From Candidatus Woesearchaeota archaeon (GTDB lineage: Archaea; Nanobdellota; Nanobdellia; Pacearchaeales; GW2011-AR1), in assembly GCA_964545065.1 (NCBI GenBank), contig CAZJEO010000001.1, forward strand, positions 128,663-192,662: DNA of 64,000 nucleotides, given 5' to 3'. A program made the position numbers and the translations under genes. Under the pieces are notes generated by a model. The model ran no database searches. It had not been told where the DNA came from and worked only from the letters and a program-made list of their open reading frames with translations. Shown here one piece after another: positions 13,113 to 50,910 of the stretch. Each line of letters starts with the position of its first letter. Positions within the stretch are counted from its first letter, which is position 1.

Positions 13113-13225
13113 TGAGGAAACCCTTCCCTTCCCAAAACCCTTAAATATCCCCTTCCCCTAAAACAATCATGGCAGAGGCGAAGCTCAATGCATTAAAACT
13201 TGGTTTAGCTGGAGGAATAGTTGGA
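13113..13225. repeat. ~110-nt direct repeat (left copy): CT-rich promoter-like tract plus the first ~19 codons of the 14023 gene
   Basis: About 85% identical to 13966-14082, including ATGGCAGAGGCGAAGCT...GGAATAGTTGGAG. Confidence 0.6.
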
Positions 13226-13309
13226 GTATTACTTCTTTCTACAAATAAACATCGCTCTTCTTTTTTTATCAAAAAAGACGGTTTCAAGAACCTTGAAATC
13301 CTTAGATAA
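13169..13309 (+). pseudogene. truncated duplicate (46 codons) of the small membrane-protein gene at 14023
   Basis: Encodes MAEAKLNALKLGLAGGIVG then diverges to a stop. Its 3' part overlaps the antisense methyltransferase gene. Confidence 0.45.
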
Positions 13310-13965: not shown

Positions 13966-14082
13966 TTTCCTACCCTCTCCTCTCCCAAAACTCTTAAATA
14001 TCCCCTTCCCCATAACATAAACATGGCAGAGGCGAAGCTTAATGCATTAAAACTTGGTTTAGCTGGCGGGATAGTTGGAGCC
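13966..14082. repeat. ~110-nt direct repeat (right copy), the promoter and 5' end of the intact gene
   Basis: See the left copy. Confidence 0.6.
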
Positions 14083-23311: not shown

Positions 23312-23383
23312 GGCTCCATAGCTTCCCAAGGGATGACCTCTTCGAGGCCTCAGCCTTTTTCGGTTGCTTCGCAGTCACCATAC
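23312..23383 (+). mobile_element. mini-element copy A: a 12-nt duplicate of the tRNA-Lys 5' end plus a 60-nt GC-rich insert with the TCCCAAGGGATGACC core
   Basis: GGCTCCATAGCT at 23312-23323 repeats the start of the tRNA at 23384. Core at 23324-23338. Together with the preceding AGCTATGG the 5' duplicate forms an 8-bp perfect inverted repeat. Confidence 0.55.
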
Positions 23384-32964: not shown

Positions 32965-33086
32965 ATCCCCAATAAGTTTATAAAATGATTAATTCTTCAA
33001 GAAATATAAAAGATGGAAATGAAAAATAGGAAATTTTGCATGGATACAAAATCAGGAGATTTTGCATAATGGTGAACACGATAAAC

Positions 33087-33536
33087 ATGCAGGACATGAG
33101 ATACCTTAATTTATTTGGTAGGGTTACTCAAGTTAATACGCGGTTTTGTTTTAAGTACAATGAGGGACTTGTTTTTTGTGTTCCAAAGCCAATGATTTTC
33201 AAAGCTGTTGGAAAAGGTGCAAGCAATATTAGAAAATTAAATGAAATTCTCGGAAAGAAAATAAAAATTATTGCAAGTCCGCGAGGAATTGAAGATGCTA
33301 AATCTTTTATTGAAAGTATTGTAAAACCAGTTACATTTAAGGGTTTGGAAGTTAAGGATAATACCCAAACGGGCATACCCAAGGAGGGCACGAGAACCTC
33401 TAACGAGGCAAGTGAAATTGTACTTACTGCAGGAATGCAGAGTAAGGCGGCTTTGATTGGCAGGAATAAGAGAAGGCTTTTAGAGATGCAAAAAATTGTT
33501 CATGATTTTTTTGGGAAAGAGTTTCGGATTATTTAG
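33087..33536 (+). CDS. nusA: archaeal NusA-like KH-domain transcription factor
   Basis: Two KH-type GxxG regions (AVGKGASNIRKL, ALIGRNKRRL) and the conserved position after rpoA. Exact start uncertain (candidate ATGs at 33069 and 33087). Confidence 0.6.
   Translation: MQDMRYLNLFGRVTQVNTRFCFKYNEGLVFCVPKPMIFKAVGKGASNIRKLNEILGKKIKIIASPRGIEDAKSFIESIVKPVTFKGLEVKDNTQTGIPKEGTRTSNEASEIVLTAGMQSKAALIGRNKRRLLEMQKIVHDFFGKEFRII
33371..33399. repeat. 29-nt repeat copy inside nusA (GGGCATACCCAAGGAGGGCACGAGAACCT)
   Basis: 27/29 match to 2854-2882. In-frame, encoding GIPKEGTRTS in the inter-KH region. Confidence 0.6.
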
Positions 33537-44745: not shown

Positions 44746-45360
44746 TCAATCATCCAAAAGAGGCACAAATACAAAACCAGGAAATTCTTTTTTTAAGGTT
44801 AACTTGTTGTTTATTTTCTTGAATGATGTTAATGATTTATCTTGGCCAATCCCCAAGGGTGCGACAATGATTCCATTGTTTTTTAGCTGTGAAATAAGTT
44901 TGGGAGGAATTTCTTGATATCCTGCACTAATAATTATTCTATCAAAAGGGGCTTGCTCTGGTAAACCTTGCATTCCATTTTTATTGTAAACTTTGACATT
45001 GTTGTAGTTGGCTAAGGACTTTCTTGAGTGCTCTGCCAGTTGTTTTATTCTTTCAATTCCATAAACTTTTCCCTTATTTCCTATTATTTCTGAAATTAGG
45101 GCTAAAACATAACCGCTTCCAGAACCTATCTCTAAAACTTTCTGTCCTTTTTTTAAATCAAGGAGCGAGAGCATCATTGCGATTGTGTATGGTTGAGAAA
45201 TTGTTTGAGTTTGTGCTATTGGTAATGCAATATCTTCATAAGCATGTTTTTTTAATTCATTAGGTAAAAAATCTTCTCTTTTAACTTTTTCAAAAGCTGC
45301 CAGGATTTGGGCTGAAAAACCCCTTTGTTTTAGGGATTGGATGAGTTGGGTTTTGTTCAT
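44746..45360 (-). CDS. pcm: protein-L-isoaspartate O-methyltransferase
   Basis: VLEIGSGSGYVLALISE motif I and PIMT family length. Confidence 0.85.
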   Translation of the reverse strand: MNKTQLIQSLKQRGFSAQILAAFEKVKREDFLPNELKKHAYEDIALPIAQTQTISQPYTIAMMLSLLDLKKGQKVLEIGSGSGYVLALISEIIGNKGKVYGIERIKQLAEHSRKSLANYNNVKVYNKNGMQGLPEQAPFDRIIISAGYQEIPPKLISQLKNNGIIVAPLGIGQDKSLTSFKKINNKLTLKKEFPGFVFVPLLDD

Positions 45361-45556
45361 GTAATTGATAGGAAAAGGAGATAGATAAATTTATTGGATA
45401 TTAGCTGCTTCTAAGATTAATGGCTCAACATCGGCTTTCAGACACGATGTTTCGCTAAGAATATAATTAATGTGAAAGAAATTTATTACGCTGATTATTA
45501 GATTATCAGTTTATTAATTTGCGAATGTTAATGAGCAAGAATTTTTTATTATCAAA

Positions 45557-45804
45557 CCTTCAAACTAACTATCTTACTAATTCCATCATGCATTTGCAGA
45601 CAACCCGCTGGTTTTCTTTACTCAAGCCCACACTCGTTTCTGTGGATTAGACTCGTGTAAACTCTCGGACTTTCCTCCCCCCAAGGGATGATTCTGGTGA
45701 ACCTCAAAGCATTGAACCCGATTTCTAATGCAATCCGGTGAAATCGCGAGCATGATGGGAATTTATACCTTTAAACTAACTATTTTTGAGATGCCATCAT
45801 GCAT
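45557..45804. mobile_element. mini-element copy B at the smc 3' end: a 37-nt direct duplication encoding the smc C-terminus, flanking a ~174-nt insert with the CCCCAAGGGATGA core
   Basis: DR1 45557-45593 and DR2 45768-45804 (28/37 nt identical). Both translate on the minus strand to MHDGISKIVSLKV-stop. The insert shares GCCCACACTC, CGTGTAAACTCT and the core with copy C. Confidence 0.65.
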
Positions 45805-48618
45805 GCTAACACCATAAAGATTTGTAGCGTTTGAGATAATTTGGTCGTTGTGAGATATTATGATATATTGTCCTTTTTGCATGTATTTATTTAGGAGATT
45901 TGCAAGGCGTTCTGAGTTTCGCTTGTCCAGAGCTGCGTCAATTTCATCAAGTACATAAAAATAATATGGATTTAATTCTTGTATTGCAAAAATAAGTGAT
46001 AAAGCGACAAGGGTTTGTTCTCCTCCTGAAAGTGATTTGACATCAAAGTATTTTCCGTGTCCTGTTTTGACTGTTATGTTGATTCCTGCGACAAAAGGAT
46101 CTTTTCTATCTTCTATTTCAAGATATACTTGTCCTTTTTCACTTAATTGAGAAAAGATGCGAGAGAAGTTTTCATTGAGTGCTGTTAGTGTTTTGACAAA
46201 TGTCTTTTTCTTTTTTATATCAATTTCATGAATTATTTTCAAGATGCTCTCTTTTTCTTTTGCTATGATTTCTGTTTTCTCTTTTATTAAATCATATTCT
46301 TTTTTTACATGGTCATAAACCTCCAGAGAACGCATATTTACAGAACCGATTCGCGACATTATTTCTTGAGCTTTAGTTAGTTTTATTAAAAGTGCATCTT
46401 TTCCTGCTTTTATTATTTCAATGTTCGGGAAGCCGAGCATTTCTGTTTCAAGATTTTCCACTTCTGCATTAACTCTTGCTCTATCTATCTTTAAATTGTT
46501 CATTTGTTGTTCAATATTATAAATTGAATTTTTATTTGTAGAAAGAGTTGATTCACTTTCACGGATGTTTTTTTGTAGGGCGTCTCTTTCTGAAATTAAT
46601 TTCTGGAACTTCTTAATAAGCTCTTGCTCTTGTGCTTTCTTTTTTTCAAGTGATTCTTCTTTTTCGTTCATTTCGCTATTTAGCGCTTTAAGTTCTTGAA
46701 TTAAATCTTCTTCTTCTCTATTTAATTGCTTCAAGGAAATCTTTGAACGGTCAAATTCTCTTTGCTTAAATGAAATTTCTGAATTAATGTTTTCTTTTGT
46801 TCTCAAGGAAATCTCTTGAATCTCTATACGCGCTGTTTCATATTTCTGTTCTATGTTTGAAGTCTCATCAAAGTTTATCTCAAGGTTCTTTTTTCTTTTT
46901 GATAATTCTGTAAGTTCTCCTTTCAATATATCTATTTTTTCCTGAAGAGCTTTAATCTGATTTTTCTTTTCGTCTATGTTTAAAAGATTGATCAAATCTA
47001 ACTCTCTTTTTGAAACTTCTGAAGTGATTTGTTCTACTTGTTCTTTTATGATATCTCTTTGAGAATACAACTCGCTCAATTTTTTATCTGAATCCTCTAT
47101 CTCTTGTTTTAGATTTTCAATTTTTGGCAGTGTTTCTTTATGGATTGATTCAATATGTCCAGAAGTTATTTTACTTTTACAAATAGGGCAAACATCCATC
47201 TTAGCTATTTTTTCAATTAATTTGTTTTGTTTGTCGATTTCATATTCGTTTGCCGCAGAAATTTTTTCCATCTGAATTTCTTTTTTAGCCAGTGAATCCA
47301 AAAGGTCTTTTCTTTCTGCCAGCGAAACCTTTAGAGAGTGGAGTTTTTCTTCATTAGTGTTTCTATCAAATAAATCTTTTGAAAAAGACCTTATTTGCTT
47401 TAGAAGAAATTCTGATTCATTTGTATAATTTTGTAAGAGAATAGTTTTGTCGCTGATTCGTTCTTTGATTGATTTGAATTCTGATTTTATTGTATAGAAC
47501 TTTTTTCTTTGATCTTCTAATTCCTCTAGCTGTTTTTTCTTGTCTTCGATTTGCTTCTGGGTTTTTGAAGTGCTGGGGGAACTATTTAATTCTTTTATTG
47601 CTAATTCATTCTCATTTAAGGTTTGTGAGAACTCTTGTTTTTGCCTAGAGATTTCTGTAAGTTTTGATTCATAATTTTCAATTCTTACATTTATTCCTGC
47701 GAGTTCTGCTCTTATGTTTGCTATTTCCTGGTTGAGTTTTTCTTGTTCTAAGCCAGTTGATTTTTGGATTGTAGAATTTATTGAATTTATTTTTGATTCT
47801 GTTGTATCAATGGTAGTTTGTATTCCAAGATTTGTTTTTTTTATTTTTTCTATATTCTTGTTCTTTTTTGCTATTTCTTCTTCTATGGAAAGCGACTCTT
47901 TTTTCTTTTTGACTAAATCGTGGTAGATTATGCTTGCCTTATATCTCTTGATATCTTTTTCAAGTTTTTTGAATCTCAAGGCTTGCTGTCGTTCTTTTTC
48001 TAAATTATTCAAATAGCTTGTCCGTTCTCGTAAAATCGCAAGGGCTTCTTTTATTTTTTCTTCTGTTTTATCTAGTTCTTTTAGTGATCTTGTTTTACGG
48101 GTTTCATAGATTGCAATTCCTGAAACTTCTTCGATTATTTTTCTTCGTTCTTCTGACTGCATTCTTACTAAATTTTGGATTTCTCCCTGAAGGATTATGT
48201 TAAACCCATTAGGGTCTATACCTGCTTGAGCTAATAATGCCAAAACTTCTTGCCGTGTTTTTGTTTCTCCATTGATCTTGTAAATGCTCTGGCCATTTCT
48301 TCTTACGATTCTTTTTATTGAGATTTCGTTTTGGTCTATTGAAAAGGTTTTATCAGAATTGTCAAATGTCATTTCAACTGCTGCTTCTTTTGCTGGAGAG
48401 GCGGCTTTTGTTCCTAGGAAGATTAGGTTTTTTGCTTTGGCTGCCCGCATTGACTTTATGCTCAGTCTCCCCAACACAAAACACAGGGCATCTGAGATAT
48501 TGCTTTTTCCGTTTCCGTTTGGACCGAGGATGACATTTATTCCTGGTGTGAAAGGCACTTCTGTTTTTTTTACAAAGCTCTTGAATCCGTGCATCACTAA
48601 TCTTTTTATGTGGGTCAT
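45763..48618 (-). CDS. smc: SMC-family chromosome segregation ATPase
   Basis: N-terminal Walker A GPNGNGKSNISDAL. Long coiled coils. C-terminal LSGGEQTLVALSLIFAIQ...VLDEIDAALD. Confidence 0.85.
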   Translation of the reverse strand: MTHIKRLVMHGFKSFVKKTEVPFTPGINVILGPNGNGKSNISDALCFVLGRLSIKSMRAAKAKNLIFLGTKAASPAKEAAVEMTFDNSDKTFSIDQNEISIKRIVRRNGQSIYKINGETKTRQEVLALLAQAGIDPNGFNIILQGEIQNLVRMQSEERRKIIEEVSGIAIYETRKTRSLKELDKTEEKIKEALAILRERTSYLNNLEKERQQALRFKKLEKDIKRYKASIIYHDLVKKKKESLSIEEEIAKKNKNIEKIKKTNLGIQTTIDTTESKINSINSTIQKSTGLEQEKLNQEIANIRAELAGINVRIENYESKLTEISRQKQEFSQTLNENELAIKELNSSPSTSKTQKQIEDKKKQLEELEDQRKKFYTIKSEFKSIKERISDKTILLQNYTNESEFLLKQIRSFSKDLFDRNTNEEKLHSLKVSLAERKDLLDSLAKKEIQMEKISAANEYEIDKQNKLIEKIAKMDVCPICKSKITSGHIESIHKETLPKIENLKQEIEDSDKKLSELYSQRDIIKEQVEQITSEVSKRELDLINLLNIDEKKNQIKALQEKIDILKGELTELSKRKKNLEINFDETSNIEQKYETARIEIQEISLRTKENINSEISFKQREFDRSKISLKQLNREEEDLIQELKALNSEMNEKEESLEKKKAQEQELIKKFQKLISERDALQKNIRESESTLSTNKNSIYNIEQQMNNLKIDRARVNAEVENLETEMLGFPNIEIIKAGKDALLIKLTKAQEIMSRIGSVNMRSLEVYDHVKKEYDLIKEKTEIIAKEKESILKIIHEIDIKKKKTFVKTLTALNENFSRIFSQLSEKGQVYLEIEDRKDPFVAGINITVKTGHGKYFDVKSLSGGEQTLVALSLIFAIQELNPYYFYVLDEIDAALDKRNSERLANLLNKYMQKGQYIIISHNDQIISNATNLYGVSMHDGISKIVSLKV

Positions 48619-49963: not shown

Positions 49964-50047
49964 AATAATTGGTGTGTCAGATGACTTTTAAAGTTTTCTT
50001 AATCAAATAATAAAGCTTATAAGTTTAAGATTATATTCTAAAAGTAT

Positions 50048-50129
50048 GCCCAGATGGCGGAGTGGTTAACGCACTAGATTGCTAATCTAGACCCTTCGGG
50101 GTGCGTAGGTTCGAATCCTGCTCTGGGCG
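50048..50129 (+). tRNA. tRNA-Ser (anticodon GCT), type II with long variable arm
   Basis: Acceptor GCCCAGA/TCTGGGC. Anticodon stem-loop CTAGA-TTGCTAA-TCTAG. Variable arm CCCTTCGGGGTGC. T-arm GTAGGTTCGAATCCTGC. Confidence 0.8.
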
Positions 50130-50138
50130 TATATTAAA

Positions 50139-50705
50139 ATGAAATTCATTATTATTCACGGATGTCCTTCAAATGCAGAGAAAGCTATGAGCCCTGAAAC
50201 AAGGACTTATGATAAACATTGGATTCCTTGGACTAAAAGAGAATTGTCTTCAAAAGGAATTGAAGTAGAAACACCCCTTATGCCTGAACCTTGGAAACCA
50301 GATTATAATAAATTTAAAGAGGAATTTGAAAAATATAGTGTTGGAGAAGATAGTGTATTAATTGGTCATAGTTGTGGATGTTCTTTTTTAGTTAGATGGC
50401 TTGGAGAAACAAAACAAAAAATAAATAAATTGATTCTTGTGGCACCGTGGAAAATTGAAGAAGGGGCTAGTGAATCTAAAAAAGCATTTTATGAATTCTC
50501 GATTGATACAACTATCAAAGATAGAGTTAAAGAAATCACAATGTTTACTGCTAATGATGAAGATGAAGATGGGAAGAAAGGTTTGAAAATGTTTCACGAA
50601 GCTTTTGGAGGGAAAATTATTGAACTTCAAGGAAGAGGACATTACACACTGGGGGACATGGGAACAGAAGAGTTTCCCGAATTAATCAAAGAAGCAACCC
50701 AATAA
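50139..50705 (+). CDS. small alpha/beta serine hydrolase (RBBP9/YdeN-like)
   Basis: IIIHGCPS near the N-terminus and LIGHSCGCSF (GxSxG nucleophile elbow). 188 aa. Confidence 0.6.
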   Translation: MKFIIIHGCPSNAEKAMSPETRTYDKHWIPWTKRELSSKGIEVETPLMPEPWKPDYNKFKEEFEKYSVGEDSVLIGHSCGCSFLVRWLGETKQKINKLILVAPWKIEEGASESKKAFYEFSIDTTIKDRVKEITMFTANDEDEDGKKGLKMFHEAFGGKIIELQGRGHYTLGDMGTEEFPELIKEATQ

Positions 50706-50735
50706 ATCAAACTTTAATATAAAATTATATATAAT

Positions 50736-50822
50736 ATTGCTAATCTAGACCCTTCGGGGTGCCCACGGTTTCCCAAGGAGGGATGACCTCGCTTTGCTCA
50801 GCCTCGAATCCTGCTCTGGACG
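50736..50822 (+). pseudogene. partial tRNA-Ser copy (anticodon loop to 3' end) with mini-element copy D (41 nt, core TCCCAAGGAGGGATGACC) replacing the 5' T-stem
   Basis: ATTGCTAATCTAGACCCTTCGGGGTGC and TCGAATCCTGCTCTGGACG match the tRNA-Ser at 50048 (1 mismatch). The insert at 50763-50803 replaces GTAGGT. Confidence 0.65.
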
Positions 50823-50910
50823 TTTTTTTAATAATTCTCATTTAATTAAATTTATAAATAATAATTACTTATCATATTATATAAAAAAGAGTTGAAAGGG
50901 GGGTGATGAA

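Follow-up and report, generated by a model that had tools for sequence, protein, structure and literature searches.

A miniature insertion cassette that may have supplied a replacement end to the smc gene of Pacearchaeota

In the 64-kb stretch of archaeal DNA analysed here (the window), the smc gene is followed by a second, recoded copy of its own last 13 codons, which lies beyond an insert of 169 nt. On balance, and with a probability that we put slightly above even, this layout represents a miniature, non-autonomous insertion cassette of the e14/icd type, which would have supplied a replacement terminus within the 3' end of smc. According to this explanation, a unit of about 200 nt would have recombined into smc at an 11-nt core, bringing with it a recoded version of the last 31 nt of the gene, complete with a stop codon, and 169 nt of non-coding hairpin sequence. 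The gene would now end in the incoming copy (c1), which presumably arrived with the insert; the original end (c2) would have been pushed downstream and left as a relic. The synonymous differences between the two copies would then reflect the divergence between donor and recipient rather than drift after a local duplication. A two-hairpin mini-element, a member of a dispersed family, would later have interrupted the recombination site in the window, and this mini-element would in turn bear segments of ~75 nt that are missing from the copies in two other loci, L007 and L206. The unit may have been moved by an enzyme acting in trans or by homologous exchange between relatives.

The smc gene and its two ends

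The smc gene (45763..48618, minus strand, as given by the ORF list and its translation) encodes a protein of 951 aa and ends in copy c1. Its ORF matches P0001 at 100%, and its best matches are hundreds of SMC proteins of Pacearchaeota and Nanoarchaeota, 943-958 aa in length and carrying SMC_N domains. The window, whose GC content is 32.6%, also encodes archaeal EF-1alpha, a DnaG-type primase, RNase HII, and archaeal D-Tyr-tRNA deacylase. Direct reading of the sequence indicates that nearly all of its genes have a TATA-like box ~24-33 nt upstream of the ATG and no leader.

Copy c1 (45804..45763, minus; ATGCATGATGGCATCTCAAAAATAGTTAGTTTAAAGGTATAA, preceded by ...GTTAGC) consists of the last 13 codons that now serve smc, in frame with the gene, and a TAA stop codon. 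Copy c2 (45593..45552, minus; ATGCATGATGGAATTAGTAAGATAGTTAGTTTGAAGGTTTGA) consists of 13 codons and TGA, and the insert occupies the 169 nt between the two (45594..45762). Both copies are translated as MHDGISKIVSLKV followed by a stop, even though only 33 of their 42 nt are identical; of the nine differences, eight fall in sense codons and are all synonymous (including one Ser TCA/AGT switch), and the remaining one distinguishes the stop codons. Each copy begins with the same 11 nt, ATGCATGATGG (left copy 45794..45804, minus; right copy 45583-45593), which reads as the codons Met-His-Asp-Gly and is the putative crossover or att core. An earlier note on this DNA had described the duplication of the last 13 codons with synonymous differences, and this is borne out; however, it gave the insert as 174 nt and clipped c2 by five bases, and its title spoke of a "copy B". 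No second copy of the insert is found in the 64-kb window by BLAST, nhmmer, or the covariance model described below.

The repeat is not a coincidence of low-complexity sequence. When the 760 nt downstream of the stop were shuffled 2000 times, the best chance match to the 14-residue tail was 7/14, as against the 14/14 observed; furthermore, the upstream copy is in frame with smc and ends in TAA. An assembly artefact is ruled out by the presence of the same layout, with copies that differ from one another, in independent assemblies from many studies. In a scan of all ORF tails in the window, the smc pair was the only duplicated tail. The earlier note had suggested that the element be sought at other gene ends, but in 524 kb of related loci, as in the window, a recoded tail duplicate is seen at smc only. 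(The same scan also returned a "tail duplication" in L214, which proved to be an AT-rich intergenic repeat with no coding duplicate.)

Recurrence of the layout

We compared 80 smc loci, taken from archaeal assemblies with one genome per species, together with the loci of close relatives. Of 81 Pacearchaeota smc loci, those of 16 distinct genomes carry the tail a second time in frame, as do the window and the metagenome contig L206; at about 80% of the sampled loci, smc has one tail only. In every one of the 17 cassettes the second copy begins at the 11-nt core or at a one- or two-base variant of it, mostly ATGCATGAYGG. The inserts fall into three classes: hairpins of 24-32 nt, elements of 91-172 nt (the window among them), and a 530-nt cargo with two small ORFs (L045), which look like a toxin-antitoxin pair. 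The short inserts follow the consensus tCATGACTyCG-hairpin-CCGTCGT, and L072 contains two such units. Decayed layouts are seen as well: c2 is truncated in L002, L037, and L029, and L025 and L074 have the start of an insert with no c2.

The cassettes are distributed patchily on the SMC tree and have sisters with empty sites. In particular, the closest relatives of the window, L004 and L224, whose SMC C-terminus is 91% identical to that of the window, have an empty target site. Thus, the layout has the features of an element integrated in the 3' end of a gene, namely flanking tail repeats, an upstream repeat that completes the ORF, and empty sites in relatives. The short insert is identical at 30 of 30 positions in L046 and L061, although the smc genes of these two genomes differ by 15%. 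Because it is perfectly conserved while the synonymous sites are far apart, this insert is probably either functional or recently spread.

Which copy is ancestral

Several observations bear on the polarity of the two copies. The nearest neighbours of the window's c2 are native smc tails, from which it differs at only 3-4 of 31 nt, and the tail at the empty site of L004/L224 is likewise c2-like; the window's smc gene resembles that of L004 right up to the core. In contrast, the codons of the window's c1 are atypical (TCA, GTA-TAA). This c1 and that of L007, a distant genome whose insert has the same skeleton, are reciprocal nearest neighbours; the two differ at 5 of 31 nt, and their 84% identity is only a little above that of the host genes (77%). 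Residues that 62 native tails lack, or show just once, occur ten times in c2 and once in c1 over the 17 cassettes, and the degenerative changes of c2 include Y for H, N for D, C or S for G, R for S, an early stop, and deletions. Because c2 is native-like, the tail of the empty-site sister is c2-like, and the odd residues are concentrated in c2, we regard c1 as the working end and c2 as a displaced ancestral relic, with moderate confidence given repeats of only 42 nt. The comparison of smc 3' ends across relatives, by which the earlier note had proposed to decide the matter, therefore gives c2 as the ancestral-like end, in agreement with that note's view that the second copy was formerly a functional gene end.

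The origin of the differences between the copies is a separate question. Over the cassettes, c1 and c2 differ by 84 synonymous and 10 non-synonymous codon changes, 86 of the 130 nucleotide differences lie at third codon positions, and switches between Ser TCN and AGY and between Leu CTN and TTR are common. A relic drifting from an identical copy could not give such a synonymous excess. L222, an outgroup whose SMC is 83% identical, has three tails in series (c1-insert-c2-c3). Here, c2 is 3/33 nt from the c1 of L061, c1 is 4/33 from the c1 of L046, and c3 is 2/33 from the c2 of L061. Because the L222 copies match these particular copies even though the host smc genes differ by 22%, we conclude that tails have been displaced serially and that related genomes have exchanged them. 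What distinguishes one copy from another would then be the divergence of alleles each of which was functional somewhere. In addition, the copies of L206 and L036 look like reciprocal chimeras of TCN-type and AGY-type tails; these chimeras, together with the swapped order of L007 relative to L031, would fit crossovers at differing points within the 42-nt homology.

Two other sources of the differences were considered and set aside. Between L046 and L061, whose inserts are identical, c1 differs by seven synonymous codon changes and no non-synonymous one, and so does c2, which suggested purifying selection on c2 after duplication; however, L222 shows that the c1 copies being compared belong to different tandem copies. 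Adenine mutagenesis of the type seen with DGRs does not fit either, since among 158 differences A is found in c1 in 50 and in c2 in 46, and the changes are synonymous.

The donors appear to have been close at hand. In the short class, c1 has the amino-acid variant of the host's own clade (such as MHEGVSKIVSLKL, which L046 and L061 have in c1 and c2 alike), which argues that transfer has occurred mostly among close relatives and against free movement of c1 across distant lineages. Furthermore, c1 and c2 encode identical peptides in 5 of 12 diverged pairs, as compared with 0.3-4% of between-lineage pairs of similar nucleotide distance; this excess points either to donors from the same narrow clade or to selection for matching tails.

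Anatomy of the insert

Alignment of the window insert with the 92-nt insert of L007 and with that of L206 reveals a common skeleton. Beginning 3 nt after the c1 stop is an arm, CCCATCATGC (45750..45759, minus), in which an additional C accompanies the reverse complement of positions 3-11 of the core (GCATGATGG); all nine long-insert cassettes have a related arm after the stop of c1. As regards the terminal inverted repeats and short target-site duplication of fixed length that mark a MITE, the core-complementary arm of 9-10 nt lies after the c1 stop and an identical 11-nt core stands on either side of the remainder of c1 and the insert, but the repeat runs to 42 nt at the protein level. The arm is followed by the 5' part of a mini-element (45702..45747, minus), defined by the alignment to L007 and L206 and comprising hairpin P1 (GCGATTTC..GAAATCG; as RNA, GCGAUUUC/GAAAUCG) and a middle segment. 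The 3' part, hairpin P3 (GAAAACC-AGCG-GGTTGTC; 45594..45616, minus), adjoins the ATG of c2. Both P1 and P3 covary, and the covariance model (R1) matches the window at 45692-45747 and 45598-45617.

Between these two parts lies the motif GAGGAAAGTC (45668..45677, minus), which is conserved in the mini-element and kept in the copies of L007, L031, and L208. In the window copy the motif is flanked by two extra segments of ~75 nt in total. Segment A (24 nt; 45678..45701, minus) is missing from the L007 and L206 skeletons in the alignment, and segment B (51 nt; 45617..45667, minus), likewise defined by alignment, is a nested hairpin module with a distant relative within the L020 insert, with which it has the string AGTTTACACGAG in common; BLAST found no further copy of segment B in 0.6 Mb. 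The 169 nt are thus a composite of the core-complementary arm, a dispersed two-hairpin mini-element, and ~75 nt of extra sequence.

The GC content of the insert is ~50%, as against 33% for the window. Its sole ORF of at least 30 aa, an ATG ORF of 43 aa (45622..45753, minus), lies wholly within the composite hairpin sequence, and we take it to be fortuitous. The predicted minimum free energy of the insert is no better than that of shuffled sequences (Z-scores 0.36 and 0.25). The window gave no Rfam match at the gathering threshold, nor did 45300-46000 or a clean copy in L204 at E up to 10.

A dispersed family of mini-elements

A search pattern designed without any smc sequence found the two-hairpin mini-element in 15 metagenome loci, about ten of them distinct, and one of the 15 is the smc tail cassette of L206. 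Elsewhere, the mini-element adjoins the start codons of six different genes, in the same orientation as the gene, lies in frame (75 nt) inside a PolB gene (L208), and is present antisense in a long intron of a tRNA-Tyr gene. A covariance model was built from 14 copies. Both hairpins covary, with 93% of cells paired and 10 pairs changed on both sides, a result equalled by none of 500 shuffles. The model identified more copies immediately 5' of the smc start codon in L062, L074, and L049, and gave a weaker match (22 bits, E ~0.01) ~70 nt upstream of the smc start in L043. Because both the covariance model and the smc-free pattern match copies elsewhere, the bulk of the window insert can be assigned, on these sequence matches, to a dispersed family whose members usually lie just before an ATG in the orientation of the gene.

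The nested mini-element, with two covarying hairpins and a 75-nt in-frame copy in PolB, has the properties of an in-frame palindromic element. (A second in-frame element family is present in the window at 33367-33408.) Like RPEs and other prokaryotic MITEs (cf. review PMC10969869), it is short, GC-rich relative to the genome, hairpin-forming, dispersed, and nested, and it shares with RPEs a tolerance for in-frame positions within protein genes. It differs from MITEs in that it has no evident terminal inverted repeats or fixed target duplication, and in contexts other than the smc tail no clear target duplication was found. Instead of many copies per genome, there is one copy in the 64-kb window and there are at least 10 distinct contexts across genomes. 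We know of no RPE or MITE for which such a strong preference for a start-codon-adjacent, gene-oriented position has been described. A programmable guide, in which the 5' flank of the mini-element would pair with the start of the downstream gene, was considered and rejected, as inspection by eye found no consistent pairing outside smc. A search of the literature on mRNA introns in DPANN archaea and on repeats in Pacearchaeota yielded nothing relevant.

The junction hairpin

In the short cassettes, the junction between the insert and c2 can fold into a 7-bp hairpin, in which the final 7 nt of the insert (CCGTCGT) pair with positions 5-11 of the core (ATGATGG) across a spacer of 4 nt (ATGC). Over eight cassettes, the 56 pair positions comprise 40 Watson-Crick pairs, 13 G.T pairs, 3 mismatches, and no A.C pair. 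The tolerance of G.T but not of A.C argues that only the sense strand forms these pairs, whether as RNA or as single-stranded DNA. In the long cassettes, the two-hairpin element has the arm (CCATCAT-GC) on its left and the core on its right, just as if a mini-element had entered the apex of such a hairpin. We take this hairpin or inverted repeat (arm-ATGC-core) to be a putative recombination site, and because G.T but not A.C pairs are tolerated, it may act in a folded single-stranded form. A double-stranded circle of 70-200 bp would be physically implausible as an intermediate.

Alternative explanations

The layout could also have arisen locally, if a mini-element, or an event of repair or template switching, had inserted just 5' of Met939, at its in-frame ATG, and copied the host's last 42 nt as a long target-site duplication, with the copies diverging afterwards. 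We consider this unlikely as a general account, although parts of the evidence point towards it. The two copies are nearly identical in L028 (42/42), L020 and L045 (both 39/42), and L044 (38/42), and these four could equally well be fresh local duplications. In most contexts the mini-element ends exactly at an ATG, not only in all of the smc tail cassettes but also at six gene starts and at three or four smc starts. In addition, the short inserts carry in their 5' part an inverted copy of the exon sequence that immediately precedes the core, and such a combination of inverted and direct duplication is typical of template switching; c1 and c2 also have lineage-specific amino-acid variants in common. 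However, a relic should gather mostly non-synonymous changes, whereas none of the eight sense-codon differences in the window is of this kind and the synonymous excess holds over all of the cassettes. The common Ser and Leu codon switches, the grouping of the window's c1 with the c1 of L007 rather than with the window's c2, and the L222 copies, which are closer to particular copies in other genomes than to their neighbours in the same genome, all speak against local origin as well.

Less probable still is a selected dual terminus, in which both c1 and c2 would be expressed, either through removal of c1 and the insert from part of the mRNA or through use of c2 as a leaderless mini-ORF of 13 codons whose start site the mini-element would create. 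The core is identical in both copies while the remainder has been recoded, the ATG and stop of c2 are kept in most cassettes, the short insert is perfectly conserved between L046 and L061, and the mini-element adjoins real start codons in a genome with leaderless genes and a TATA-like box at about -25 to -33. For the splicing route, the palindromic cores (AUGCAUGAU) could pair to give a 4-bp helix with two 3-nt bulges, reminiscent of the archaeal splice motif; the cores pair UGCA/UGCA with UGA bulges, cleavage would be in frame, and the full central helix is formed in nearly all cassettes (mean 3.94/4). Yet the flanking helices in the window are only 2 and 1 bp, and the ATGCAT palindrome, which genes with no insert have too, is enough by itself to give the 4-bp helix; the search for a splice motif returned only this trivial helix. 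Moreover, the degenerative changes are found in c2 only, the apparent purifying selection on c2 fell away with L222, and a second identical end has no apparent benefit. A related and similarly doubtful possibility is a selfish element, either intron-like or creating a start site, that brings a spare exon end with it, both tails being used through a splicing endonuclease and ligase or through a leaderless 5' end that the mini-element generates at the c2 ATG; its short hairpin with complementary arms would be a functional RNA. Alternatively, folded single-strand units of 70-200 nt that bear a recoded gene terminus might be moved by a host recombinase at an essential gene, in the manner of an integron. 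Finally, an ordinary non-coding RNA gene after smc, such as a minimal RNase P RNA, is very improbable. The strings GGGGAGGAAAGUCCG, ACAGAA, and GGGCUU recall what we take to be helix P4 of RNase P, with a ~15-nt match to its universally conserved region, the insert is GC-rich, and its two hairpins covary. However, Rfam was negative for both the window copy and the clean L204 copy, the folding energy is no better than that of shuffled sequence, the P4 look-alike GAGGAAAGTC is a motif of the dispersed element that occurs also in frame in PolB and antisense in a tRNA intron, and a nested segment that is missing from other copies holds what else would make up the P4.

Relation to known systems

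The insertion cassette that we favour has its closest parallel in e14 (and phage 21), which inserts in the 3' end of icd and has the same geometry, the gene running into an element-borne copy of its own end. The displaced original end in E. coli survives as icdC, the copies differ mainly by synonymous or conservative changes, and loss of e14 recombines the two copies to give a chimeric functional icd (PMC13626634, citing Hill et al. 1989). The prophage e14 itself is 15 kb in length and encodes its own integrase and excision functions. The smc unit, by contrast, is only ~200 nt, has no integrase, and contains nested hairpin mini-elements. Its repeat (42 nt, with an 11-nt identical core) is shorter than the C-terminal fragment icdC, and its layout recurs in ~20% of sampled lineages with at least three classes of insert.

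No integrase or transposase was found in the 169-nt insert and no recombinase domain among ten nearby proteins. A free or viral form bearing the tail was sought with a degenerate 42-nt tail pattern in the 2.9 million viral contigs of IMG/VR, and none was found, which leaves the earlier note's comparison with a phage attP site unsupported. (A 15-nt element pattern gave only chance matches on viral contigs and was uninformative.) Thus, of that note's proposal that an element supplies the replacement terminus, the replacement is upheld by the native-like c2, the atypical c1, and the serial copies of L222; the insert, however, is made up of several parts rather than a single element, and its mini-element is found elsewhere at the starts of genes, not at their ends.

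Archaeal and bacterial integrative elements with tRNA genes as their targets have the same order as the smc cassette: an intact target, cargo, and a partial copy of the 3' part of the target. They differ in that the target in smc is a protein gene, the cargo is non-coding and tiny, and no integrase was found. The tRNA-Ser locus of the window consists of an intact tRNA, one cargo gene, and then a partial copy of the tRNA, which we counted in favour of the insertion-cassette explanation; at tRNA-Lys, a mirrored duplication is present at the 5' end.

Recombination sites that work as folded single strands are represented by attC of integrons and by attP of the CTX phage, which is used by XerCD. 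The smc cassettes bring these sites to mind, as they have an imperfect hairpin at their boundary in which G.T is tolerated on one strand only. Like integron cassettes, they are small, have no recombinase of their own, use one fixed site, and form arrays (L222, L072, L028). Unlike integron cassettes, they duplicate a gene end, and they have no conserved R/L box like that of attC. Gene 60 of T4 provides another small mobile insert within a coding region, where matching codons and hairpins flank a gap that the ribosome must hop. The smc cassette likewise has matching codons and hairpins on its flanks and does not disrupt the protein, but no bypass is needed because the upstream copy has its own end and stop.

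Significance

To our knowledge, very little has been learned about mobile elements in DPANN archaea. If the insertion-cassette explanation is true, then insertion with a spare gene end would have been reduced to a unit of ~70-200 nt that has no enzyme of its own, and that targets an essential chromosome-maintenance gene in about one-fifth of the sampled Pacearchaeota lineages. Such cassettes would stack, leaving serial fossil gene ends, and they would preserve a legible trace of how uncultured lineages have exchanged DNA and point to recombination activity. For annotation, the lesson would be that short second copies of a gene end beside GC-rich islands in these genomes are insertion scars, rather than assembly errors or small genes. 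Finally, the mini-elements lie immediately 5' of start codons, and the mRNAs of the organism are leaderless; this position bears on how such genes are transcribed or processed.

Duplicated gene ends at tRNA loci

The arrangement at the end of smc, in which a working tail and a displaced tail flank an insert, has counterparts at two tRNA genes in the window. The tRNA-Ser region (50047-50831, plus strand) consists of an intact tRNA (50047-50130), a one-gene cargo encoding a Ser_hydrolase ORF (50139-50705), and a partial second tRNA-Ser copy (about 50745-50831), which starts in the anticodon loop and extends through the 3' end of the tRNA; the partial copy is itself split by a 35-nt GC-rich insert, CCACGGTTTCCCAAGGAGGGATGACCTCGCTT. 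At both tRNA-Ser and smc, the gene is followed first by cargo and then by a relic of its 3' end. The duplication at tRNA-Lys (23312-23383, plus strand) mirrors the smc case, but at the 5' end of the gene. Here the first 12 nt of the tRNA, GGCTCCATAGCT, occur again 72 nt upstream of the gene, directly 3' of a TATA-like box, and this upstream repeat is followed by a mini-element, CCCAAGGGATGACCTCTTCGAGG, which may be the 'copy A' of the earlier note.

The two-hairpin mini-element within other genes

The two-hairpin mini-element, which forms part of the smc insert in the window, also lies inside genes of related loci. In L210 (1000-1330, minus strand) it is antisense within the intron of a tRNA-Tyr(GUA) gene; this intron, of ~235 nt, is at the canonical 37/38 position, and the gene containing it was not detected by ARAGORN. 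This L210 sequence also occurs in L211 and L217. In L208 (882-960, minus strand) the element is in frame within a family B DNA polymerase, where it adds 25 codons to the exonuclease domain without a stop codon, between ..VITWKGKKETF and SVEYVEDESELL...

A second GC-rich mini-element family, with the motif ..GTACCCAAAGAGGGCACGAGAACC.., is present in the window at 2850-2891 and 33367-33408 (plus strand). One copy is intergenic; the other is in frame within an ORF (33036-33536, 166 aa) that has no Pfam match. A reversed piece related to this family is nested inside the mini-element of locus L218. The window also contains a 104-nt direct repeat (13123-13226 and 13977-14080, 80% identity), in which each unit covers the promoter region and the start of one of two adjacent minus-strand genes; both genes start ATGGVA.. 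and are preceded by a similar GC-rich leader.

Insertions at both ends of smc

Among the related loci, copies of the two-hairpin mini-element family end directly at the smc start codon in L062 (445-526), L074 (406-489) and L049 (459-543), so that smc carries insertions at its start in some lineages and at its end in others; a weaker match lies ~70 nt upstream of the smc start in L043 (394-473). Relatives of the window carry a third kind of GC-rich insert after smc, starting ..CTCCAAAGTCGCTCRGCTTATTGATATGCTC and ending ATCTGCGAAGCAG, in L001 (5857-6015) and, just 3' of the smc stop, in L002, L003 and L006. In L002 the insert is followed by a shortened second smc tail, ATTAGTTTAAATGTTTAG, and in L004, a sister genome with a single tail, the end motif is also found ~400 nt downstream of smc.

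Small two-gene modules lie between or adjoining the smc tail copies in L045 (downstream of the smc stop), L017 and L042. These resemble toxin-antitoxin pairs or antitoxins of the HicB type, and their position indicates that the same site is used by protein-coding cargo. Finally, some Pacearchaeota SMC homologues of ~1480 aa (P0129 and P0157) have precomputed intein and LAGLIDADG domains (PF14890, PF14528), and thus smc of the Pacearchaeota group also hosts inteins.
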